Below the pieces are notes generated by a model. That model ran no database searches. It had not been told where the DNA came from and was given only the letters and a program-made list of their open reading frames with translations. Made by a program: the position numbers and the translations under genes. 64,000 nt of DNA from Lactobacillaceae bacterium (GTDB taxonomy: Bacteria > Pseudomonadota > Alphaproteobacteria > RF32 > CAG-239): contig JAISVX010000003.1 of NCBI GenBank assembly GCA_031271345.1, positions 167,374 to 231,373 of the forward strand, given 5' to 3'. Positions 6,502-31,390 of the stretch are shown here, piece after piece. Each line of letters begins with the position of its first letter. The first letter of the stretch is position 1.

Positions 6502-7446
6502 TTACTTATTTGCCGCTCTGGTAATTCTGTCATTTATTGCCAAGCCGATGCCTTTGCTTGGTATTGGCGCGATTGCTATTTTTGAAAAATTTGTTTGTTT
6601 GTCGGCTAAATGCAGATATGCGAACAGGTTGCTGGCAGCTTCAATTAAGTCGCCGGAAGGACTTAAATCGATATTTGCGTTTGGAGTATCTCCAAAGCCG
6701 ATAAAAAACTCTCCGATTGCAGGGGCGGCTGCGTTTATTCTTAAGCTGCGGCTGGGGGAATAATGTTTCAGCATTTGACCGGGAGCCATAGGTTTATCAG
6801 GGTCGCCGTTTGAAACTAAAACTTTTTCTCCAAGGAAGTTTTCTAAAGTTTCTCTGCTTATATACCCGGCTCTTAGTATAACGGTATCTTTGCCTGTTAA
6901 GTCAACGATTGTTGACTCTAGCCCGACAATGCAGGGACCGCCGTCTAATATCATTTCTACCCTGTCTCCAAGGCTTTCTCTAACATGCTCGGCGGTTGTA
7001 GGGCTGATTGTCGTTGATAAATTTGCCGATGGAGCGGCGATTGGAACATCCGCTTTTTTAATGAGTTCTAAAGCCGCCGGGTGGTTGGGCATTCTGACCG
7101 TTATGGTTCTCAAGCCGGCGCAAACCAGGTCCAGAGCTGGATTGCTCTCAGTTCTGTTTAAGACAAATGTTAAAGGACCGGGCCAAAACCTTTTTGCAAG
7201 AGCTAAAACTCTTCCGTCTGTTTGAGCGTAAGCCGAAAGAAAATCAATATCGGCTATGTGCGATATTAAAGGATTGAAAATTGGTCTTCCTTTAATGCTG
7301 AATATATTTGCCACGGCTTTCGAATTATATACATTAGCTCCCAGTCCGTAAACTGTTTCCGTAGGCATGGCTACAACTCCGCCGTTTTTAATTAATTCGG
7401 CGGCTTTTGCTATATTTTCTTCGTTTGCAATGTATATATTACTCAT
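6502..7446 (-). CDS. tsaC: L-threonylcarbamoyladenylate synthase (Sua5/YrdC/TsaC family, long form with a Sua5 C-domain)
   Basis: YrdC-domain motifs (MPTETVYGLGANVYN; FWPGPLTFVL) plus a ~120-aa C-terminal extension typical of Sua5. Confidence 0.85.
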   Translation of the reverse strand: MSNIYIANEENIAKAAELIKNGGVVAMPTETVYGLGANVYNSKAVANIFSIKGRPIFNPLISHIADIDFLSAYAQTDGRVLALAKRFWPGPLTFVLNRTESNPALDLVCAGLRTITVRMPNHPAALELIKKADVPIAAPSANLSTTISPTTAEHVRESLGDRVEMILDGGPCIVGLESTIVDLTGKDTVILRAGYISRETLENFLGEKVLVSNGDPDKPMAPGQMLKHYSPSRSLRINAAAPAIGEFFIGFGDTPNANIDLSPSGDLIEAASNLFAYLHLADKQTNFSKIAIAPIPSKGIGLAINDRITRAANK

Positions 7447-7449
7447 AAC

Positions 7450-7860
7450 TTATACTTTAAGAATATATGAAATAGCTCTTTCAGCTTCTGGATATTCTTC
7501 TAGCACTTCCAAGTCTGATTTGTCAATGATTTGATATAAAGATTTTTCCTGATTATAAACAAGATAATCGAAATCATCAACGCCGAGAATAATATATTTA
7601 GATTTTATAAATCTTTCTTGTTTCAGATTTATGTCGAGAATATCTCCGGCAAGATTACTTGGCGGATTTATGCCGAATATTTCACCGCCTTTGTAGTTTA
7701 TTCCGTTGATACTTTCCAAAAAATCAATAAAACTGTTTGGGATTGTCGCTATTTTATTTTCTACTAAAGCTCTTTGAGTGTCGGCAATATCGGCTGAGTT
7801 AGGATATAAACCGTGAAGATTTTCAAATTCATGCTCAATAGTATGCACCAAGCGTTTCAT
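7450..7860 (-). CDS. SUKH/SMI1-KNR4-like immunity-type protein, 136 aa
   Basis: SUKH-1-like signatures (IPNSFIDFLESINGINYKGGEIFGI and YIILGVDDFDYLVYNQE). Its ATG directly abuts the stop of the upstream HNH-like gene (TAAATG). Confidence 0.55.
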   Translation of the reverse strand: MKRLVHTIEHEFENLHGLYPNSADIADTQRALVENKIATIPNSFIDFLESINGINYKGGEIFGINPPSNLAGDILDINLKQERFIKSKYIILGVDDFDYLVYNQEKSLYQIIDKSDLEVLEEYPEAERAISYILKV

Positions 7861-9174
7861 TTATCTTCTCCTCATGGATTTTCTCAAAGATTGGATAGAA
7901 AATCTTGCTTTCGCCAAGCTTTTCTGCTCCTTTGGTTTTTGCTCATTTTTATTAAACCTTTCCGCCCGTCTGGCTGCGTGGTCAGATTTTTCTTTTTCAA
8001 TATTCTCCATAATTTTTCTGGCGGCGATTTTTTCTCTTAATTCTTCCGTATCATTGGTTATAAATGAGCCGTCATAATAAAACACGTTGTTTTGCGCCCT
8101 TTTTGTTCTTGGGTCGTTTGTATAATCATAATCGAGCTGCTGAATTGGTGACAATCCGCCGACAAAAACCACATTTTTATTTTTAAATGCCATGCTGTTG
8201 CGCATAAGCCTGCCGTTTTCATTTAACGACTTATCTAATCTATGGATAATTTTTCCATGATAAGGATCGTCAATACATAGACAGAGGTTTTCAAACAGGT
8301 TTATTTCGCCCATTTTAGATTTGCTGTTTGCCTCGTTAACGGCGATTTTATGGTGGACGGATATTCTTGGTCCCTTAATTTCTATCCCGTTCTCATCAAA
8401 AACCCGAAAATTTTCGGACATGCCTTTTGATTTCATATTTTTAACAAGTTCTTTGATATATCTTTTATCAACGCCGACATCTTCCAAAATTTTTACAAAC
8501 GGTTTTTCAAAGTTTTTAATAAAATCTTTTACAAAGCTGTATTTTGCGCCAAGAAACATAGGAGCGTTTTCATCGTCTTCCGCGCGCTTGAACTGGTTGT
8601 GTATGACGTCTGTATAGTCTTCCACAGCCATGTTTTTTAAATCTTGGGGATTTACGCCGCTTTCGCTTAGCTGTCTCTTTACTCTTGTTTCAATGTTTCT
8701 AAAGTTTTTAAACTGTCTGAACAAAAGCCATGACGGAGAAGTTGATAAATCATAATCTTCGGGCTTGTATCTGTTTTTATTACCGGGGTTTTTGCATGCG
8801 CGGCTGTAAAAATCGGATAACAGCTCGGGGTCCGGCTTGGTAGTTGAGCCGTAATAATCCATGCGGATTACTCTCTTTTCGGCTCTTGTTAATGAATTGA
8901 ACTCTTGGGTCTTAAACTCTATTCCGGCTTTGTCCAAGAGGCTCAACAGTTCATCGAACTCTTTTTTGCCTTTCTTCAACTTGTTTCTTTTTGATTCAAA
9001 TGTTTTAAGGATTTCTTTGGTTAGCTCTTTTTCATTATTAAATAATTTTTTCTTTAGCTTTAAGATTTTTATTTTTTCGCTTTTTGTCATGGCGGCAAAG
9101 TCCGCTTCATCAAAGTTTGCGGGCTTTATGAAGTTTATGTAATCATCATAACTTTCTAGCTTATATTCCTCCAC
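7861..9174 (-). CDS. HNH-like nuclease-domain protein, paralog B (437 aa); candidate toxin or effector
   Basis: C-terminal HNH motif SVHHKIAVNEANSKSKMGEINLFENLCLCIDDPYHGKIIH (HH...N...NLxLC.C...H..H). Shares the central block WxxFxxFxNFxNIExxV with 9161-10510. Basic C-terminal tail. Confidence 0.5.
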   Translation of the reverse strand: MEEYKLESYDDYINFIKPANFDEADFAAMTKSEKIKILKLKKKLFNNEKELTKEILKTFESKRNKLKKGKKEFDELLSLLDKAGIEFKTQEFNSLTRAEKRVIRMDYYGSTTKPDPELLSDFYSRACKNPGNKNRYKPEDYDLSTSPSWLLFRQFKNFRNIETRVKRQLSESGVNPQDLKNMAVEDYTDVIHNQFKRAEDDENAPMFLGAKYSFVKDFIKNFEKPFVKILEDVGVDKRYIKELVKNMKSKGMSENFRVFDENGIEIKGPRISVHHKIAVNEANSKSKMGEINLFENLCLCIDDPYHGKIIHRLDKSLNENGRLMRNSMAFKNKNVVFVGGLSPIQQLDYDYTNDPRTKRAQNNVFYYDGSFITNDTEELREKIAARKIMENIEKEKSDHAARRAERFNKNEQKPKEQKSLAKARFSIQSLRKSMRRR

Positions 9175-10510
9175 TTCCTTTGCCTTTTATTTTAGAGATT
9201 GCCACAGTCGGAAGTTCCTTAGTGTTTTCCTGTTTTTTGCCAGAATACTTTATCCTGAAAAGAGGGGTCAGACTAAGCATCATATCATATACTTCTTTTT
9301 CGGGGAACAGACCGAAGACTTTATCGTTATTTGCTCCCGTATATTCTCTGTCGTTGCTGTGGATGAGCGTATGTATAAATTTTGACACGACAAGCAGGTT
9401 ATCGTCGGCATTTATATGATTGTAGTCCAAGTGTTTGCCGGCGTTGCTGACATGGACGATATGGTGGGTAGATAAATCGCCAAGCAGAAGACCTTTTGTT
9501 TTTGCAAGATGCAGCCTCAGACTTATTTCTTTTTCGCTTTTGCCTCTTAGTTTAAGATACTTCGTGTACTTTTCAGACGTTTCGTCTCCTTTGAACGCGT
9601 CCATAACTCTTTTGTTTACCGAGCCGATGAACATATATGTTCCAGCTTCGTTTTCTTTGCCAAAATATCTTCCAATCAGGTCTTTAAACTCAAAGACTCC
9701 CATATATTTGACTGTATCCGGGATAAATCTGTATTCCTGAAGCGCTTCGATGACCTTGTCTTCGATGTTTTTAAAGTTTTCAAATTTTGAAAACACATTT
9801 TTCCAAGCGTCGGATTCGTATAAATTATACTCTTCCGCTTGATAGAAAGGAGTGTCTTTCCGAAAGACCTTTTTTCCGCCGATAATTTTCTCTACTTCTT
9901 TTTTCTCTTTTTTTCCGTTTGAATTTATGATGGTTTTATGTTCTTTAACAACAATCCCATCAACAATTTCATATTTGCCCTCGTATTTGATTTCTGAAAT
10001 ATAATTTGCGTTAAGATGATATTCATCCAATGTTCTGTCTTTGCCTTCGCAATAAGGTCTTAGCTTGGAAAGATGAGGGGGATTGGGGAAAAGTCCGCTT
10101 GCGTCGAGTCTTGTAGCTTCTCTGACATCTCCTGGAGTGTCAAACATATCTTTTTCTTTGTAATATAAATCAAGAATATTAGCCGAAACCTCATCAAGAG
10201 TGCATTCGTTGTCAAAAATGTATCCCTGAATTGCTGTCTGCAATGACACTTCGCGGCAGAGCAATGAGATTTCGCCAATTGAGAAACCGCAGTTTTTGTA
10301 TTCTTCAACAAGTTTTATATCTTGTTTTGTCAGACATGCCTCGATTAACGGCATGTCGGGAAAATTTGCTATAATTGCTTTTTCGATTCTCTGGTGCTGT
10401 TTGATTTTTATTACGTCTTCGTTCTTCCTGTTGCCAGTCTTAAAGTCGTCAGCAGTTAAAGGGAAACCCTTTGTCATTTCAATATATTCGTAGTCTTCTT
10501 GATTAATCAC
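9161..10510 (-). CDS. HNH-like nuclease-domain protein, paralog A (449 aa); candidate toxin or effector
   Basis: C-terminal THHIVHVSNAGKHLDYNHINADDNLLVVSKFIHTLIH matches the HNH pattern but lacks the Zn-binding Cys pair. Central block WKNVFSKFENFKNIEDKV is homologous to paralog B. Overlaps the next gene by 14 nt. Confidence 0.5.
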   Translation of the reverse strand: MINQEDYEYIEMTKGFPLTADDFKTGNRKNEDVIKIKQHQRIEKAIIANFPDMPLIEACLTKQDIKLVEEYKNCGFSIGEISLLCREVSLQTAIQGYIFDNECTLDEVSANILDLYYKEKDMFDTPGDVREATRLDASGLFPNPPHLSKLRPYCEGKDRTLDEYHLNANYISEIKYEGKYEIVDGIVVKEHKTIINSNGKKEKKEVEKIIGGKKVFRKDTPFYQAEEYNLYESDAWKNVFSKFENFKNIEDKVIEALQEYRFIPDTVKYMGVFEFKDLIGRYFGKENEAGTYMFIGSVNKRVMDAFKGDETSEKYTKYLKLRGKSEKEISLRLHLAKTKGLLLGDLSTHHIVHVSNAGKHLDYNHINADDNLLVVSKFIHTLIHSNDREYTGANNDKVFGLFPEKEVYDMMLSLTPLFRIKYSGKKQENTKELPTVAISKIKGKGSGGI

Positions 10511-10751
10511 TTTTCACGTCCCAATGAAAATGTTTATATTTTGTCTAAATTATAGCAAATTTTTTTGTAAATGTACAAGCTAAAAATGACATTTTTTATA
10601 AAATGAGTATAATAAAGACGCATGGATTGATTAAAATTAATTTGTCCACTTTTGGTGGTGAAAGAACTGTTTATATAAATAAATAAGGTTTAAAAAAAAT
10701 AAATTAGCTACTATATTTTAATAATGCTAACTTTGTAATTATGGTGGTGAA

Positions 10752-12197
10752 ATGGTTGAATATGTTTTAAATGGAAAAAGCAAAAATGTTGATGCGAGGG
10801 TAGTTCTTGTTGATAAGAAAACTAAAAAAATATCAAAAGAGATTGCGGAGCGCTTTTCAAAAGAAGAACTGAAGTTATTTGAAAAAGTTATCAAAGATGA
10901 CATGGGCAAAAAAGATTTTATAAATGTTTATACAAATGCCAGCCCTGTTATATTGTTTTTGTTTGATTTTGCGGCAGAAAATAAAGAGCTGCAAAAATAT
11001 GGGGCAATGCTTTCAAAAGCTGTTTTTACCTTAAAGAATGTAATGGTATTTACAGATAAGATTAAAAATGGGGTGGAATATTTAATCCTTGGTCTTGAAC
11101 TTGGAAGGTACCGTTTCAATAAATATTTTACAAAGGATGTGGACAGCAAAACTTCCGCCCTAAAGAGCATAAACATTATTGACGTTGCAAAAAGCGTTAA
11201 AAAAGCGGATATATCGAAAGCCGTTATTTTATCTGGCGGAGTTAATTATGTTAAGGATTTGGTCAATGAGCCTGCCAATTATCTAAATCCTGAAACTTTT
11301 GCAAAAATTTTATCAGGCTTAGAGGAAATCGGCGTTAAAATAGAAGTCTTAGACGAGAAAAAGCTTAAGAGTCTGGGATTTAATCTGCTTTTGGCGGTTG
11401 CCAGCGGTTCTGCAAACAAGCCTAGAGTCGTGGTTTTGTCTTGGAATGGAAATGATAATAGTAAAGAATATGATATTACCCTTGTCGGCAAGGGCGTTAC
11501 GTTTGATTCCGGCGGCTTAAGTATTAAAACCGGCGGGTATATGGAAGGCATGCATACCGACATGGCTGGAGCAGGCGTTGTCTCTGGAGTTATTAAGGTG
11601 GCGGGCGAGTTAAAATTAAAGAAAAATATTCTTGGAATTGTCGGACTTGTCGAGAATATGCCTTCAGGCAGCGCATATCGTGTAAATGACATAATCAAAT
11701 CTATGTCTGGTCAAACGGTTGAAGTTTTAAACACCGACGCGGAAGGAAGGCTGGTTTTGGCTGATCTCTTAACTTATGTTCAGCAAAAATACAAAGCAAA
11801 GAGGATTGTTGATTTAGCCACATTAACAGGGGCGGTTTCAATGCTGTTTGGACCGGTTTATGCTGGTTTGTTCAGCAATAATGATAAGATGATAAAAGAT
11901 TTAACAACTGCAGGAAATAATACTGGAGACAGGCTGTGGAATCTGCCGATGGACAATTATTTTAATAAAGCGATGGATTCAACTTATGCGGATATGCAGA
12001 ACTCGGGCAAACACAGAGTAGGAGGCGGAAGCCAGGGCGCTTGTTTCTTAAAGAGATTTATCAAGGATAAGACAATCTGGTCTCACTTGGATATTGCCGG
12101 CGTTGCCAGAGAAAGCCTTGACGATGATTTGTATGCCAAAGGCGCGACAGGCTACGGTGTTAAACTTTTAATTGATTACATAGAGAATATGAAATAA
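10752..12197 (+). CDS. pepA: Leucyl aminopeptidase (M17 family)
   Basis: Signature NTDAEGRLVLAD and metal-binding residues (GKGVTFDSGG). 481 aa. Confidence 0.9.
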   Translation: MVEYVLNGKSKNVDARVVLVDKKTKKISKEIAERFSKEELKLFEKVIKDDMGKKDFINVYTNASPVILFLFDFAAENKELQKYGAMLSKAVFTLKNVMVFTDKIKNGVEYLILGLELGRYRFNKYFTKDVDSKTSALKSINIIDVAKSVKKADISKAVILSGGVNYVKDLVNEPANYLNPETFAKILSGLEEIGVKIEVLDEKKLKSLGFNLLLAVASGSANKPRVVVLSWNGNDNSKEYDITLVGKGVTFDSGGLSIKTGGYMEGMHTDMAGAGVVSGVIKVAGELKLKKNILGIVGLVENMPSGSAYRVNDIIKSMSGQTVEVLNTDAEGRLVLADLLTYVQQKYKAKRIVDLATLTGAVSMLFGPVYAGLFSNNDKMIKDLTTAGNNTGDRLWNLPMDNYFNKAMDSTYADMQNSGKHRVGGGSQGACFLKRFIKDKTIWSHLDIAGVARESLDDDLYAKGATGYGVKLLIDYIENMK

Positions 12198-12240: not shown

Positions 12241-13350
12241 TTATCTAGGAGTGCAATCCTTATAACATGTAAGGTTTCCAAGGTTTGTCTGCGTACATCT
12301 ATATCCGACGGGAACATAAGTCGAATATCCCGCTTCCGCGCAGTTTGCTGGCTGCTTTGTTTCTTCTTGTTTTACCTTGCAGTCTTTATAACATGTTAAA
12401 GAACCTACATACACCTCGGTACACTTATTGTTTACAGGGACATAAGAAGAATATCCGGCTTCAATGCAGGTTTTTGGAGGTATATCTCTGCAGTTTGACG
12501 CATCATAACAGCTCAAACCTTTATAAGATATGGTATCGCATATTTTGTTTGATGGTTTTATCTCTGAATATCCGCCGTCAGAACATTTATATTCTCTGCA
12601 TTCATAACAATTGTTATAGTCTTCATTAACAACCTTTCTGCTGCATTTAAGGTCGGACTGGTCGGTGTCGTAATAGCCGATATCAGTGCAGGATAATGCT
12701 CTGCAGTCAGCGTAACATGTAGTGTTCAGGTACATAACTTCATCGCATTTTTCTCTGTCGGGCTGATAATGCATGTATCCGCCGCTGTTGCAAATTTCTT
12801 CGTAGCTGAAACATTCAAAGCATACCAAATTTTTGTCGGTAACTTCAAAACACTGCTGTCCAGAGACTTTTCTACTGCTAAATCCTAAGTCGGAGCAGGT
12901 TATTGTTTTGCAGTTTTTATAACAGGTATTGCCGTTAACTTTGGTTTCCGTACATGTCTTTCCCTCGGGAACAGCGCTTTTATATCCTGAGCTTTCGCAG
13001 GAGTCAGAACAGTCTTTGTAGCAGATTTTGTCGTTTAGTTTTGTTTGAATGCATTTTTGTCCGACAGGAACAGAGCTTAAAAGTCCGACATCTTCGCAGG
13101 CAGTTTCTGGAACATCCCTGCAGTTAACATAACATCTGGAACCTTCTTTGTATATGTTATCGCATTTCTGCCCGGCGGGAATGCTGGAATAAAACCCGAG
13201 CTGGTCGCATGTTTTTTTAGGAGTTGTCGGCGCGGGTCTGGCTTCGTCGCCGTATCCGTCGGTAATGAATCTGACGCGAGCGTCGGCATAACTTATGGCA
13301 AAAAGCATAAGTCCAAATATTATTAGTGTTTTTTTTCCTAGTTCAGTCAT
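12241..13350 (-). CDS. Secreted cysteine-rich tandem-repeat protein (9 x ~36 aa, 4 Cys per repeat)
   Basis: Signal peptide MTELGKKTLIIFGLMLFAISYADA. Nine repeats of C-x3-G[YF]-x5-6-P-x3-KC-x7-9-C[YF]-x-[DN]-C, e.g. CIEAGYSSYVPVNNKCTEVYVGSLTCYKDC. The DNA also carries the repeats (recurring TTATAACATGT). Confidence 0.6.
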   Translation of the reverse strand: MTELGKKTLIIFGLMLFAISYADARVRFITDGYGDEARPAPTTPKKTCDQLGFYSSIPAGQKCDNIYKEGSRCYVNCRDVPETACEDVGLLSSVPVGQKCIQTKLNDKICYKDCSDSCESSGYKSAVPEGKTCTETKVNGNTCYKNCKTITCSDLGFSSRKVSGQQCFEVTDKNLVCFECFSYEEICNSGGYMHYQPDREKCDEVMYLNTTCYADCRALSCTDIGYYDTDQSDLKCSRKVVNEDYNNCYECREYKCSDGGYSEIKPSNKICDTISYKGLSCYDASNCRDIPPKTCIEAGYSSYVPVNNKCTEVYVGSLTCYKDCKVKQEETKQPANCAEAGYSTYVPVGYRCTQTNLGNLTCYKDCTPR

Positions 13351-25825: not shown

Positions 25826-28800
25826 CTAAAATTTGTATTCAACACCGGCTTTAATTTCATAAGAACCGTCCCTCTCAATAATTTTACCCGCTTCGGTAAA
25901 CAGGTTAAGAGATTTGAAGTAATAATCTAATCTGCCTGATATTAGACCTCTGGATTTATCGCTTTCATAGCCCTTCATGTTATAATAGCCCGGCATGCCG
26001 AACATTGTCGCGTTTGAATTGCCGTAAGTATCGCCAAATTCTTGATAGAAAGTGCCGCCAATACGAACTTTTACAGAATTAAAATCGTCAATCTCAAAAG
26101 TTTTCTTCGCATATAAACCAAGCCCGCCTTCAACAGACAAGCTGTTGGAAGATTTAACGGTCAACTGCTGCTTTTCTTTGGTTTTTGTTTGGTATACGCC
26201 CAGAACATTAAACTCTGCCGTTGGTTCAAGCGTGAAGAAACCTAAATCAATGTCTTTTCTTACTTCGTTGGTAACTCCGTAGTAATAATTTTTTGTATCC
26301 GCTTTATAAATATTGCCGGAAACAACTCTGCGGTAATCGCCCCATCCGAGACCAACTCTTGGCATAGATACAAAAGCGATTGTATCTGTTTGATATTTTA
26401 ACGGCGCCAATATGTGGACTAAAGTGTCGTCTCTTTTCGAAGAATTGTCATATTCGCTGTTTAATTGGGTTATTGTGAAACCCGCGCCATAACTGAAATT
26501 GTTGTTATATCTCTTTTGAACCAATCCATAAACAGAATGCGCGTCTTCTTCATAACCCTCAACCGCTCCAGACGCTTCCTGGTCTTTTTGTATGAAGTCA
26601 TAGCCCATCATCGCAACAACTTCGCGAGGGTCGTTATTTGCAAATACGCTGTTGTTAACCTGACGGTTTAAGCTCTTAACAGCTTCAAGATTCTGTCTTG
26701 CAAAACTTGGGAAGAAGTCTAAGCCAAGAAAGTTGTTCACCGCTTTTGTCAAACCGTTTTGATTGTTTGCATTTTTTACTGCATTAAACAGAGTTAACGC
26801 ATTTTGCGCTTTTTTGCTCTCAGTCTCTCCTGACGCGTTATACAAGTCGTAGGCATTATTTAAGTATTTAGCCAGATATTTGTCGGAAACAACTTCGTCA
26901 AACTCTTTCATAGTCATTACAACATCTTTGTTTCCGTCTCTGTTTTCTACCAGTTCCGCGTTGAACATGTAAGAATTTGAAAGCAGTTCTAATTCTGAGC
27001 TGTCGCCGATAAACGCGTTTTCGCTGACAAAAGATTTGTTAAAGCTGTCCGTTGTAATATTAGAGCCGGCATAAACTATGCCTGATATTTCTGGAGCTTC
27101 GTATTTTCCGTCTTTCTCAACAACAATTTTTCCGCCTTTCAAAGTCCAGTCATTAAAGTTAATCGCTGTTGAAGATATGGTTATGCCGCCGCTTCCGGTA
27201 ACAAACTCTGCGTTGTCGCCAATAGAAATATAAGAGGATGCGTTACAATCGTCATCGCTGCAGCTGTTAGTTCCGATTTTTATTGTGCCGTCATTATAAA
27301 CATAAGATGTGTCTGTTGTGGTTCCTACCGCATAGATACCGTTGCCGCTGCCGGTTATATTGATAATACCAGTCGCGGCATTATACACTAATGCGCCGTT
27401 TAAGGCAATTATGCCGGCGCTGGCGGTGTTATTGGATGTTATATTAATAGTGCCTCTATTTACGGCTTTTGAATCTGCGCCGGTAGCATACATGCCATAA
27501 GCTTTTACGGTGTTAGTCGTACTGGAAATGTTTATTGTCGCTCCAACATCGTTTACAATTGCCGCGCCTCCGGTTGTAAACATGCCTATTAGAGAAGTAT
27601 TTGCGGTAGTGCCGCTTAAGGAAATTGTTCCTCTGTTATATGCCTTGCTGTCCGTTCCGGTAACCGCCATTCCATAAGTATCAGCGGCTGCGGTTGTTAC
27701 GGTTATTTTACCATTAGCCATATTTATCAGTTCCGCGCCGTCAACGCCATACATGCCGTATCCGCCCAGCATTCCAATTGAACCGCTGTTTACCGCCTGC
27801 GTGCCTTCGCCTTCCACATACATTCCAGAGCCGGACTGGGCGAGTTTTATAACGCCGCTGCTTAAGTTTGTAATTTTTGCGCCGTCAATAGCGACCATAC
27901 CATAACCTAGCCCTGCGCTGATATTGATTTTTCCGGCGTTTTCTGCCGAGCTTTCTCCAGAGAAAGCAGTCATACCAGTAGCCACGGCATCAATCGTGCC
28001 GTTTGTACCGTTTGTGACCTTGCCGCCCAATGTAGCCTGCATGCCGGAGGTTGTTATATAATCGTCAACGCTTCCGCCGGATATGGTAATTTGACTGTTG
28101 TTTACAGCCGTGCCGCTATTTGAAGTCTGCATGCCTATACCCTGGGATATTTTAATGGTTCCGCCTGATGAATTGGTAACAGTGCCGCCGGATGTCATCA
28201 TTCCAAATGCGTCAACACCTCCGACATATTCTATTGTTCCAGAGTTAAAACCTTCACCGTTTTCAGTATATACGCCGATTGTTCCGTTTCCAGTCAGATT
28301 TATATTTCCCATATTATAGGCTTTACCTTCATTTGCCATCATTCCATAGCTGTCCGCGCCGACAACGTTTAGCTTTCCAGAACTGGTGTTCATTACAACG
28401 CCTGTAGCTCCAGATACGCCCAATCCGACAGAGTTGATTTTGTTAATGTTTATTGTGCCGTTGTTTACGCCTTGTCCGCCATTGGCAAAGACGCCAAAGC
28501 TTTCCTGATCGTTTAATTCAATGGTTCCGTCGTTTCTTGCCGTACCTTCGGTAGTATACATGCCGTAAGAAGCAGGATCCATATCGGAGCCGGTAATGCT
28601 GATTGTAACGCCGGCGGAGTTTACGGATGAACTTCCTGCATTTCCATCAATTCCTATGCCGCCGTTGCTAAGCATTATGCCGGCTTTGTTAAGAATTGTT
28701 CCAGAGCCGGTTGCGGTAATGCCGTATCCGAAGAAACCGCTTATGGTTATGGCTGCATTGTTGGTTATTGAGCCGTTTTCGGCAGAAATGCCCGTGCCAT

Positions 28801-31390
28801 AGTTATTGTTGATGTACGCGCTGTTTCCGACGAGATTTATTTGACCGTAGTTATCAATTGTTGTCGAGCCTTCCCCAACGATACCTGCATTTTGCGTTCC
28901 ATCTAAATTGGAGTTAATGATAATTTTTCCATAGTTATAGACTTTGCCGTTTTCAACATATATGCCAGTTCCGTCCTTGCCGTTAATGTTTATCTCTGCA
29001 TTGGCATTATTTGAGGCTGTGCCGTTATACACAATGCCTGATGACTGAATGCCGGAAGAGTTATCCGCGTCAACATCAATCAATTTAAGGTTTTCAATAG
29101 TTCCGCTATCGCTTAGTATGCCGACGCCGGTTCCTTCTATTTTTACTGTTCCGTTATTAACGATATTGCCTGTCATTGAAGATATTCCATCGCCGCCGCT
29201 TTTCATAGTGATGGTGCCGTCATTGGTGACTTTGCCGTTTTCTGACAAAATGCCGACTCCTTTAAGCTCAAAAGTGATTTTTCCCGAACTTAAGTTGTTT
29301 ACGTTGGCATTTTCAGAATATATACCATAAGACGGGGTAGCAGTTGGGTCAACGTTGTTTACATTGATATTTATCTGCCCGGTATTGTTCACTGTTCCGG
29401 CTACGGCATATAGTCCGTAGTTGTTTTTGCTGACTGACGAAATAATATTTTCAACATTAACGATGCCGTTGTTGTTTAGTGTTCCATATTCAATATATAT
29501 GCCGTAAGAGTCGTCCGCTTTATTAATGTTAACCGTGCCGCTGTTATTAACCGCTGTTCCGGCAGTGTCGTAGTTTGTGCTTCCTTCTCCGACAGGGTTT
29601 CTAATGACCGTAATTCCTTTGCCGCCGCTGTTCATGGTGATAACGCCGGTATTGTTTATTGTTCCGGCGTTTGAGTGAATGCCGGTGCCTGTAGAAGCAA
29701 AATTAATCTGGTTTGTATTGCTTATGCTTCCGCCATGAAGAGAAATCATTCCATATCCGCCGATACTATCCATATTGATAGAGCCGGTATTGGTTAATGT
29801 CGGTTTGCGCACATCAAATTCAGAGTTTGTACCGTTTCCGCGAATGGCAATCATGCCGTATCCTTCGGTGCCGCCTTTAACGCTGATTGCACCTTGGTTA
29901 AGCAAAGTTCCTCCGTGAACTGACAGCATGCCTGCATGAGAACCTGTAAAATCTGCGTCGTCATTTGATTCGACCTCAACATTTACGGTCCCGGTAGAGG
30001 TGTTGGTGGCCGTAGTGTTCGCGTCAGCCCTGATACCGATAATGCCGTTGTTTGCTTCGCGAATGTTTGTGACATAGCTTGATGAGCCGACGAGAGATGA
30101 TTTTACGCTTATTTGACCACTGTTGGTGATTTCAACATAACCGGCTCTGCTTAGAAGTTTTTTACCATTAGTGAAATCTTCTTCAATGTAGCTTCCCATA
30201 CCAACCAGAGCGGTCGCATTAGAAGACGATGTTGAAGTGTTGCTCAAATCGATTACTCCCGTTACCCCGTTAGTAAGTTTTGTAGCGTAAGCTGGAGTTG
30301 GATTGTCTTCCTGGTTTATAATTCTTCCCTGCATGCCGACCAATGTGCCTGCCGTAGCGTTAGAGCTTATGGTTTTGATGTTTTTGTTGTTTAGTATTAA
30401 TCCGTTTGTGTCCGAATATATGCCGATAATTTGGTGTGTGTCAAAAGAACCTTCAAAGCTCATTAATATATCGCCGCCGTTTGTTGCCTGTCCGTTATCG
30501 CTGGCAATCATTCCCACAGTTCCGCTTGCGGCATTGATTTGGATTATATTGTTATTAAATGCTGTGGCTCCATTTCCCAAAGCTACCAAGCCTGCGGTAA
30601 CGTTTTTAAGGTTTATTGTTCCGTTATTCGTTAGGGAAGTGTTTTGGTATGCTTTAAATGCGACCTGAATATATTTTGCATATTCAAGAATGTTGCTGTT
30701 AAAATCCATCCAGGAAAGAAGGTATTTGCCATCCTCGAACATTCTGTCATTATCAAAAGTTAAACTTTCTGTATTTGTGTATGACGAGCCATTTTGAGCT
30801 TTTTTATATATTGCCTGGTATCCGGCTGGAGCATCATAAGGTTTTAATGTTCCGGCAAAATCTCCGAGGTTGTCGTTTGTAGCTTTGTATCCATGACCAC
30901 CACCGCCTCCGCCGCCTCCGCCACCGCCAGCGGCAAGGGCAACTCCCGCGCCGGCAAGCAATAATCCGCCGATAACCCAGGTTTTGGTAGAAATAACGAA
31001 CTCACCTTTGTCAAACCTTGTGTAAGCGGCTCTTGGCGTTTCTTCCAGCCCGACCACGCCGCTTGAGTTCATGAAAGAATTGTATTGTTGTCTTGGAATA
31101 TTTTGGGTACATCCGTGTTTTGGGTTGGAGCCTGCGGCTCTAAAAGCATTATATGCTGTTTTATTGTTTCTTTTTATGGCATAACATAAACCAGTGTCCC
31201 CGTTTCTGTCTACGGTATCAATATTCATTCCGCGCTGGACAGCCGCTCTCAATGCCCTTACGTTTCCAGAAGAAGCGTAGCCGTACATTTGTGAAAGATT
31301 TAGAGGAGGAATATTTGCATGACTTGCAGTACTGGTAAAATAGAAACACACTGCAGTAATTATTGAAATACTTTTACGAAAATTTCCCAT
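25826..31390 (-). CDS. Giant type Va autotransporter (1854 aa) with an ankyrin-like N-terminal module, a Gly11 tract, a long beta-helix passenger and a C-terminal beta-barrel
   Basis: N-terminal signal peptide. 1.5 ANK-like repeats (NGDTGLCYAIKRNNKTAYNAFRAAGSNP). A second hydrophobic segment then G11 (DNA 30896-30928). Hundreds of G-x-G/NxGTI beta-helix repeats. The C-terminal barrel ends ...IKAGVEYKF. Confidence 0.8.
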   Translation of the reverse strand: MGNFRKSISIITAVCFYFTSTASHANIPPLNLSQMYGYASSGNVRALRAAVQRGMNIDTVDRNGDTGLCYAIKRNNKTAYNAFRAAGSNPKHGCTQNIPRQQYNSFMNSSGVVGLEETPRAAYTRFDKGEFVISTKTWVIGGLLLAGAGVALAAGGGGGGGGGGGHGYKATNDNLGDFAGTLKPYDAPAGYQAIYKKAQNGSSYTNTESLTFDNDRMFEDGKYLLSWMDFNSNILEYAKYIQVAFKAYQNTSLTNNGTINLKNVTAGLVALGNGATAFNNNIIQINAASGTVGMIASDNGQATNGGDILMSFEGSFDTHQIIGIYSDTNGLILNNKNIKTISSNATAGTLVGMQGRIINQEDNPTPAYATKLTNGVTGVIDLSNTSTSSSNATALVGMGSYIEEDFTNGKKLLSRAGYVEITNSGQISVKSSLVGSSSYVTNIREANNGIIGIRADANTTATNTSTGTVNVEVESNDDADFTGSHAGMLSVHGGTLLNQGAISVKGGTEGYGMIAIRGNGTNSEFDVRKPTLTNTGSINMDSIGGYGMISLHGGSISNTNQINFASTGTGIHSNAGTINNTGVITMNSGGKGITVIRNPVGEGSTNYDTAGTAVNNSGTVNINKADDSYGIYIEYGTLNNNGIVNVENIISSVSKNNYGLYAVAGTVNNTGQININVNNVDPTATPSYGIYSENANVNNLSSGKITFELKGVGILSENGKVTNDGTITMKSGGDGISSMTGNIVNNGTVKIEGTGVGILSDSGTIENLKLIDVDADNSSGIQSSGIVYNGTASNNANAEININGKDGTGIYVENGKVYNYGKIIINSNLDGTQNAGIVGEGSTTIDNYGQINLVGNSAYINNNYGTGISAENGSITNNAAITISGFFGYGITATGSGTILNKAGIMLSNGGIGIDGNAGSSSVNSAGVTISITGSDMDPASYGMYTTEGTARNDGTIELNDQESFGVFANGGQGVNNGTININKINSVGLGVSGATGVVMNTSSGKLNVVGADSYGMMANEGKAYNMGNINLTGNGTIGVYTENGEGFNSGTIEYVGGVDAFGMMTSGGTVTNSSGGTIKISQGIGMQTSNSGTAVNNSQITISGGSVDDYITTSGMQATLGGKVTNGTNGTIDAVATGMTAFSGESSAENAGKINISAGLGYGMVAIDGAKITNLSSGVIKLAQSGSGMYVEGEGTQAVNSGSIGMLGGYGMYGVDGAELINMANGKITVTTAAADTYGMAVTGTDSKAYNRGTISLSGTTANTSLIGMFTTGGAAIVNDVGATINISSTTNTVKAYGMYATGADSKAVNRGTINITSNNTASAGIIALNGALVYNAATGIINITGSGNGIYAVGTTTDTSYVYNDGTIKIGTNSCSDDDCNASSYISIGDNAEFVTGSGGITISSTAINFNDWTLKGGKIVVEKDGKYEAPEISGIVYAGSNITTDSFNKSFVSENAFIGDSSELELLSNSYMFNAELVENRDGNKDVVMTMKEFDEVVSDKYLAKYLNNAYDLYNASGETESKKAQNALTLFNAVKNANNQNGLTKAVNNFLGLDFFPSFARQNLEAVKSLNRQVNNSVFANNDPREVVAMMGYDFIQKDQEASGAVEGYEEDAHSVYGLVQKRYNNNFSYGAGFTITQLNSEYDNSSKRDDTLVHILAPLKYQTDTIAFVSMPRVGLGWGDYRRVVSGNIYKADTKNYYYGVTNEVRKDIDLGFFTLEPTAEFNVLGVYQTKTKEKQQLTVKSSNSLSVEGGLGLYAKKTFEIDDFNSVKVRIGGTFYQEFGDTYGNSNATMFGMPGYYNMKGYESDKSRGLISGRLDYYFKSLNLFTEAGKIIERDGSYEIKAGVEYKF

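Follow-up and report, generated by a model that had tools for sequence, protein, structure and literature searches.

The window analysed here, 64,000 nt of GenBank assembly GCA_031271345.1 (contig JAISVX010000003.1, positions 167,374–231,373), carries three co-oriented minus-strand genes, A, B and C, which an initial annotation had read as two paralogous HNH-like proteins followed by a SUKH-type immunity gene. Genes A (9161..10510; GTG start, 449 amino acids (aa); MDR1694195.1, LBR70_03265) and B (7861..9174; GTG start, 437 aa; MDR1694194.1, LBR70_03260) encode an A-type and a B-type paralogue, and gene C (7450..7860; ATG start, 136 aa; MDR1694193.1, LBR70_03255) encodes an acidic, predicted YrhA-type SUKH protein. 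Read from the sequence, the A–B junction is an overlap of 14 nt (GTGGAGGAATATAA), and the stop codon of B is immediately followed by the start codon of C (TAAATG); the open reading frames (ORFs) and both junctions bear out the tight packing originally described. After a 3-nt gap, the C stop is followed by the start of tsaC/sua5 (TAA GTT ATG; 6502..7446, minus strand, 314 aa), and the packed unit therefore comprises four genes, not three.

BLASTP of A against B gives 28% identity over 184 aa (E 1e-12), confirming that the two proteins are paralogues. The alignment spans a W..F..F.NF.NIE..V block and an HH...N..NL...H...H block. The first of these had been given as WxxFxxFxNFxNIExxV; it is indeed common to both proteins, with a W-x3-F rather than W-x2-F spacing in A. 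The second is, as described, present in one protein as a Cys-less variant, the cysteines of the B sequence NLCLC being missing from A. A is built from a lineage-specific N-terminal region, a family helical domain and a Cys-less HNH-like C-terminal domain. The conserved block of its N-domain that is common to B (located by BLASTP and alignment) covers residues ~223–340 (9491..9844, minus strand), and the HNH motif HHIVHVSNAGKHLDYNHINADDNLLVVSKFIHTLIH follows at residues 349–384 (9359..9466, minus strand), with H, H, N, N, H and H all kept.

B combines the family helical N-domain with an HNH-like domain and a basic C-terminal tail. In an AlphaFold2 (AF2) model, the family-specific α-helical N-domain occupies residues ~92–255 (8410..8901, minus strand) and the HNH/His-Me finger domain residues 239–365 (8080..8460, minus strand). 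The latter is modelled as a β-strand ending in HH, a β-strand NLCLC and an α-helix PYHGKIIH, with the core HNH motif at residues 274–311 (8242..8355, minus strand). The remaining residues, 366–437 (7864..8079, minus strand), form a tail that is helical and strongly basic, its last 40 residues having a net charge of +10. The isoelectric point of B is 9.4, against 4.65 for C.

Scanned directly against Pfam, NCBIfam, PADLOC and PHROGs, A and B gave no useful match, and few close homologues of A, B or C were found. An exhaustive profile search gathered the A/B family into 155 representative clusters (130 at E ≤1e-10), with lengths from 344 to ~1050 aa. No Pfam domain, whether for trafficking, pre-toxin or secretion functions or of any other kind, was found in A, B or ten long relatives, and A and B have no hydrophobic segment, signal peptide or transmembrane segment (Kyte–Doolittle maximum <1 in a 19-residue window), in keeping with the initial annotation, which had noted neither a signal peptide nor a delivery module. 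A profile of the N-domain, compared with Pfam and the PDB, found only designed helical repeats and scattered sub-threshold single matches; the full-length family profile, searched against PDB sequences, gave only a chance match to LrpA.

Long members of the family (~970–1050 aa; loci L005, 5089..7998, and L011, 5146..8073; clusters P0020, P0023, P0027 and P0031) contain an expanded array of helical units between the N-domain and the HNH domain. Each unit is ~35–45 residues long and follows the pattern F[IV]..N...F..[YF][LI]....I....I..L. B has a single unit, FLGAKYSFVKDFIKNFEKPFVKILEDVGVDKRYIKELVKNMK, which is the source of its matches to designed helical-repeat proteins. Lineages with a single nuclease gene encode proteins of 344–975 aa; those of 969–975 aa were considered as A–B fusions and this was rejected, as they are B-type proteins with a long helical-repeat insertion.

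The predicted nuclease domain and its SUKH partner

The C-terminal domain of the family is marked by the motif HH[KI]..V.D[AS]G...N.F.NL.L....(Y)H...(L)H. In a domain alignment of 38 diverse members, H36, H37, N58, H68 and H73 show no variation, conservation of N54 reaches at least 90%, and the HH/N/N/H/H residues are present in A, B and all orthologues. Among PDB sequences, the domain profile matches the colicin E7 DNase best (E 0.59), the match lying at the HH motif. In an hhalign alignment, HH, N, H and H line up with H102/H103, N118, H127 and H131 of colicin E9 (ColE9), whose sequence as used here is partly corroborated by the 2erh_B alignment. The AF2 domain model (predicted local distance difference test score 93.5) has a β–β–α order around the motif; Foldseek, run against the PDB, gave no match at E <5.

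Sub-threshold Pfam matches among family members are to HNH (4 members), HNH_2 (3), AHH (2, best E 9.6e-4), HNH_3 (2) and Col-Pyo_DNase (2); the families matched by most members all belong to the HNH clan, except DUF5643 (2 members). A transitive link comes from a Bacillus subtilis toxin related to the family, whose C-terminal domain reaches PF01844 with 22.1 bits (cut-off 21.4). The C terminus of A and B is thus predicted to be an HNH-superfamily nuclease domain of toxin type, and the HNH/ββα-Me-like C terminus called in the initial annotation is supported by the invariant residues and by the profile links to toxin HNH domains.

Protein C scores 54.4 bits (E 1.2e-14) with the NCBIfam YrhA model NF038335, whose curated cut-off is 55, and 18.8–21.1 bits with Pfam SUKH_5, SUKH_6 and SMI1_KNR4, below cut-offs of 25.4–27. 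Among its orthologues, eight of ten match all three SUKH Pfam families (best E 3.9e-7). The C family has an invariant C-terminal block, YQIIDKxDxEVLEEY, that recurs in toxin-linked YrhA proteins, the common form being (Y/F)QI(I/L)DK..(E/D)V(L/M)EEY. Compared by hhalign with three such cognate YrhA proteins (Listeria, Bacillus and Pantoea), the family aligns over its full length (98.3% probability, E 2.6e-14, 129 columns), and the Bacillus YrhA passes the SMI1_KNR4, SUKH_5 and SUKH_6 cut-offs. C is therefore best described as a predicted YrhA-type SUKH protein in the immunity position. Its assignment to SUKH thus stands, with YrhA/SUKH_5 as the best match in place of the SUKH-1 class first named; the Pfam models that had been suggested as a check are matched below their cut-offs by C itself and reached through its homology to YrhA proteins that pass them.

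Relatives in delivered toxin–immunity cassettes

With C as the tblastn query, plasmids yielded a protein annotated 'YrhA family protein', which is carried by Listeria seeligeri pLIS4 (28.7% identity, E 5e-6) and encoded directly after the gene for an LXG/PT-TG polymorphic toxin of the type VII secretion system (T7SS). The A/B domain profile matches the C-terminal domain of this same toxin (95.4% probability, E 1.7e-8), and a profile–profile comparison with four toxin tips raises the match to 97.0% (E 9e-11). Both partners of the window pair are therefore homologous to the partners of genuine delivered-toxin/immunity cassettes. The toxin domain occurs in 460 records of the plasmid collection, labelled 'HNH endonuclease' or 'T7SS effector LXG polymorphic toxin'. 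One B. subtilis record places it among genes of SPbeta, with YrhA following, and in a Pantoea record YrhA again comes directly after the toxin-domain gene.

In Escherichia coli, the same domain forms the tip of an Hcp-fused protein (392 aa), with yrhA as the next gene; the two are annotated 'tssD: Hcp1 family type VI secretion system effector | yrhA'. This pair is found in 3807 of 5426 complete genomes, in one chromosomal place and mostly at ≥99% identity, so the best-known cassette relative is also largely fixed, not polymorphic, in its species. The E. coli protein is presumably the one described as Hcp-ET1 by Ma et al. 2017. Hcp-ET1 itself is a DNase effector of the Hcp-HNH type (PMC9990079). 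In E. coli K-12, yhhZ shares an operon with yrhA (PMC12428005). In B. subtilis 3610, the LXG pair at the SPbeta position, YokI/YokJ, is a functional toxin–antitoxin pair that depletes chromosomal DNA (PMC8321402); we set it beside the toxin of B. subtilis SH1 on the basis of its SPbeta yokI position.

The closest known pairs are the Hcp-fused and LXG-fused C-terminal domains with their YrhA partners. The window pair and the E. coli type VI secretion system (T6SS) effector (tssD; yhhZ in K-12) have the motif VHHK..(L/V)..D.G..N.F.NL.L...PYH in common, a YrhA-type SUKH gene directly after the nuclease gene, and chromosomal conservation as a pair. They differ in that the E. coli domain is carried on Hcp, whereas A and B carry it on a new helical N-domain with no known secretion link; the last histidine of the motif is Thr/Asn in E. 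coli; and the window has two nuclease paralogues per immunity gene, placed in a tsaC operon. With the LXG toxins (L. seeligeri pLIS4; B. subtilis SH1, at the SPbeta yokI position), the pair shares the homologous C-terminal domain (95.4–97%), the toxin-to-immunity gene order and an immunity protein homologous over its full length, C-terminal block included. These toxins carry LXG and PT-TG domains, of delivery and pre-toxin type, and are found on plasmids or prophages by T7SS helper genes, none of which holds for the window family, and their C-terminal domains vary between strains, whereas those of the window family do not.

Further likenesses are to the colicin/pyocin DNases and Tox-AHH toxins (HNH/EndoVII), which share a Cys-less HNH with the HH...N...H...H metal/general-base arrangement. 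The colicin E7 match and the ColE9 register point the same way, and AHH and Col-Pyo_DNase are matched weakly by some members, none at the curated threshold. The residue before HH is V/I/T in the window family, not A/G, and the immunity protein is SUKH, not Im-type. Tox-REHH (Rehh; bioRxiv 10.64898/2026.09.22.753552) sets a precedent for HNH toxins that escape both sequence and whole-fold searches, and is neutralized by acidic immunity proteins, SUKH proteins included, that occlude its basic active site (bioRxiv 10.64898/2026.09.22.753552). Compared by description, Rehh is a different family with its own motif, known secretion-system delivery and polymorphism.

Conservation and synteny of the locus

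The survey covered 43 related loci, drawn from both genomes and metagenomes and including metagenome-assembled genomes (MAGs) labelled Alphaproteobacteria from the human gut, the rumen and elsewhere; the ORFs of these loci were searched with HMMs for the A/B family, the SUKH protein, Sua5 and PepA. Nearly all have the order nuclease–SUKH–sua5, usually with a divergent pepA upstream, and C and sua5 overlap or abut in nearly all lineages. The unit is kept even where PepA is ~40% and the nuclease ~31% identical to those of the window. In two lineages the nuclease is a single A-type gene, and SUKH–sua5 is retained with an M29 peptidase gene lying upstream; in one further lineage the nuclease–SUKH pair sits in an unrelated context without sua5. 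A survey of homologue neighbourhoods had been proposed as a check of the toxin–immunity pairing; it finds a SUKH gene after the nuclease gene in nearly every locus, including those in other contexts. A literature search for SUKH with Sua5, and for yrhA with immunity, yielded nothing relevant. The reading of the genes as a homing endonuclease or mobile intron was rejected, the chromosomal slot being fixed and no target gene interrupted.

Rates of change differ between the partners. A and B evolve faster than their neighbours (45–48% identity against 67–77%; A orthologues in L001 and L002 are 48% identical), whereas C is held at a housekeeping-like rate (70–79% identity where PepA has 66–67%). 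Within one human-gut species, ten independent assemblies give 99.1% nucleotide identity for the nuclease gene and 98.8% for the SUKH gene, compared with 97.2% for pepA and 97.4% for sua5, so variation in the pair is no greater than in the flanking genes. The N-domain is joined to the same HNH domain in 119 of 145 family representatives, the N-only cases being mostly fragments. No relatives of B were found in viral contigs, phage genomes or plasmids.

Some loci depart from this pattern. At L003, L004 and L009 (MAG GCA_028706255.1), both nuclease genes are present with intact motifs and a 65-nt gap separates the B orthologue from sua5. At L042 (4250..4941), a single A-type nuclease gene is followed by two tandem SUKH paralogues, the second running off the contig; no other locus hints at an expansion of the immunity gene. 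Some human-gut assemblies (L038, 3979..5816; L039; L041) have a nuclease gene that is truncated or broken in two (385 + 202 aa) beside intact SUKH and sua5 genes, reflecting either assembly errors or occasional pseudogenization.

Upstream of A, a divergent pepA (M17 leucyl aminopeptidase; 10752..12197, plus strand) forms the syntenic flank, outside the module itself. The initial annotation had placed the locus among housekeeping genes, naming tsaC and pepA, and the flanks are indeed Sua5/TsaC and PepA; other neighbours in the window encode a pseudouridine synthase, a sigma factor, a GGDEF protein, a methyltransferase, a HAD hydrolase, OmpA and RecJ. A consensus scan located a promoter-like site, TGTACA-17 nt-TATAAT with a TG extension (10549..10577, minus strand), ~39 nt upstream of the A start codon, which is a candidate only, as such sites are not enriched over shuffles. 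An Rfam scan of the window found two distant tRNAs and nothing at the A–B–C locus. Elsewhere in the window, a 369-aa ORF (12241..13350, minus strand) has a hydrophobic N terminus and about nine Cys-rich repeats (C..xGYxSxxPxGxxC....CY.DC), with no Pfam match and no DNA-level tandem repeat, and is possibly a secreted or lipoprotein repeat protein. For a very large ORF of 1854 aa (25826..31390, minus strand), neither a Pfam family (E ≤1e-5) nor a relative among PDB sequences (E ≤1e-3) was found. The source MAG is labelled 'Lactobacillaceae bacterium' at NCBI; this looks wrong, because the syntenic relatives are all Alphaproteobacteria MAGs and the CheR/GGDEF/RpoH-like gene content fits that group.

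Function and meaning of the locus

The initial annotation had proposed a polymorphic-toxin module, which we compared with the features of such systems as set out by Zhang et al. 2012 (PMC3482391). An immunity gene directly after the toxin gene is present, both at the TAAATG junction of the window and in nearly all 43 loci. A and B have no recognized N-terminal trafficking or secretion domain (LXG, Hcp/VgrG/PAAR, RHS, filamentous or signal peptide), though their N-domain may have a novel trafficking role. Swapping of C-terminal domains on a constant N-terminal scaffold was not found among the 145 representatives; no standalone toxin cassettes or orphan immunity arrays lie downstream, where sua5 follows directly (the tandem SUKH genes of L042 excepted); and neither mobile-element linkage (plasmid, phage or viral contig) nor secretion genes were seen in the neighbourhoods. 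Lacking a trafficking domain, C-terminal variability, cassette arrays and mobile or secretion linkage, and showing no strain polymorphism and a vertical synteny with sua5, the locus is not a polymorphic toxin system as defined, and that part of the proposal is not supported. What the comparisons predict is a locus that works like an HNH–SUKH toxin–immunity pair outside such systems.

The locus is probably a toxin–immunity cassette that has become fixed in a core tsaC/sua5 operon, with C masking the nucleases. A and B would be two-domain proteins of an unannotated family, made in the cytoplasm, whose basic nuclease domains are bound by the acidic C and so kept inactive in the producing cell; by homology, a freed nuclease would cut DNA only where C is absent. 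C would block access of the nuclease domains to DNA, as immunity proteins do for HNH toxins, and an acidic C facing a basic B would fit the acidic-surface mode described for other HNH toxins (bioRxiv 10.64898/2026.09.22.753552). The cassette, once fixed in the tsaC/sua5 operon, would have been inherited vertically throughout a clade of gut-associated Alphaproteobacteria, the nuclease gene having presumably duplicated into A-type and B-type copies in the lineage of the window. The freed nuclease may act either after export by an unrecognized route or inside the cell, in defence, addiction or regulated DNA cleavage.

Several points weigh against this reading. No Pfam HNH model matches A or B directly; in the HMM comparison that the initial annotation had suggested, only other members of the family match five HNH-clan families, and they do so below threshold. 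The change of the last motif histidine to Thr/Asn is found in the toxin relatives generally, and the active sites of A, B and these relatives are accordingly not identical. Both the binding of C to A and B and the nuclease activity are predicted, and a single C is assumed to neutralize two paralogues that are only 28% identical. The main objection is the lineage of L003, L004 and L009, where no SUKH gene or tblastn remnant was found at the locus itself. A lethal toxin fits poorly with such a lineage, unless immunity comes from another place in the genome or the enzyme alone does no harm.

The locus mimics the architecture of a canonical polymorphic toxin (conserved N-domain, variable repeats and C-terminal toxin domain, then an immunity gene), and one could suppose that A and B are exported for interbacterial competition, the N-domain and repeats being an unrecognized trafficking module and C protecting the producer and its kin. 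Both partners are homologous to parts of T6SS and T7SS cassettes, A and B evolve faster than their neighbours, C-terminal tails are basic and one relative has tandem SUKH genes, all of which fits this; the E. coli Hcp–yrhA pair, present in most genomes, is a precedent for a conserved core effector. We nonetheless consider it unlikely: the family lacks known delivery domains, secretion genes and downstream cassettes, shows neither domain swapping nor strain polymorphism, is syntenic at order-level depth and has lost the SUKH gene in one lineage. The same deep and universal synteny bears on an intracellular role in defence or addiction, of the abortive-infection or toxin–antitoxin-like kind, in which a nuclease–C complex would be produced constitutively alongside tsaC, and the DNase would be freed once C is lost or titrated (during phage shut-off, for example). 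This locus is found throughout its clade, unlike defence systems, which are as a rule patchy and carried on islands, and no phage or plasmid copies were found. PADLOC-DB v2 gave no significant match, the only one for B being PDC-M24A (E 0.0039, 15 bits). SUKH immunity proteins are not known to be labile, and we regard this explanation as improbable.

Vertical inheritance across the clade, the conservation of C above that of PepA, translational coupling to sua5 in many lineages and retention of the locus on a source contig of 829,090 bp would each suit a domesticated housekeeping enzyme, acting in DNA repair or processing or in tsaC-linked RNA/tRNA cleavage, for which C would be a chaperone or regulatory subunit and not an antidote. 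The lineage without C keeps its catalytic residues, and SUKH proteins such as Syd have non-immunity roles (PMC3113570). The pair is also found without sua5 in another context, the closest identifiable relatives of both partners are toxin–immunity cassettes, no link to a repair or tRNA pathway was found and homology of the N-domain is uninformative; we accordingly judge such an enzyme improbable too. That A and B are host-directed nuclease effectors of a reduced-genome symbiont, as had also been proposed, is very improbable. The small source contig and low GC would fit, and the basic C-terminal tails resemble some signals of type IV secretion systems. The relatives, however, are human-gut, rumen and other MAGs with chemotaxis and flagellar genes, and no secretion system is seen near the locus. 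We rate this explanation lowest because the immunity gene is conserved, whereas effectors aimed at eukaryotes typically have none, according to a comparative survey (PMC3482391).

For the fixed toxin–immunity cassette, deep synteny, the housekeeping-like conservation of C and translational coupling to sua5 favour a core role; a role in conflict is conceivable as well, given that A and B evolve faster, that the repeats have expanded and that the ancestry is one of toxins. We tentatively suggest, as a possibility rather than an expectation, that a cassette of polymorphic-toxin origin was captured and domesticated as a core, vertically inherited part of the tsaC operon in an entire clade of gut Alphaproteobacteria, in which the family-specific N-domain and repeats would serve either as a hitherto unknown module for delivery or targeting, or as one for nucleic-acid recognition. 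In the latter case the SUKH protein would act as a switch on the HNH domain, which would become a nuclease regulated within the cell.

HNH–SUKH pairs are known as mobile, hypervariable weapons carried on secretion domains. Here the same two parts appear with an undescribed N-domain, duplicated, invariant within a species and long locked into one operon with an essential tRNA-modification gene. The bacteria concerned, alphaproteobacteria of the human gut and of other guts, have received very little study. Should the nuclease be exported, its N-domain would mark an unrecognized delivery route; if it is not, the locus would be a clear case of a conflict system turned to a core cellular function. 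Either way, some 150 clusters of 'hypothetical' proteins gain a testable annotation.

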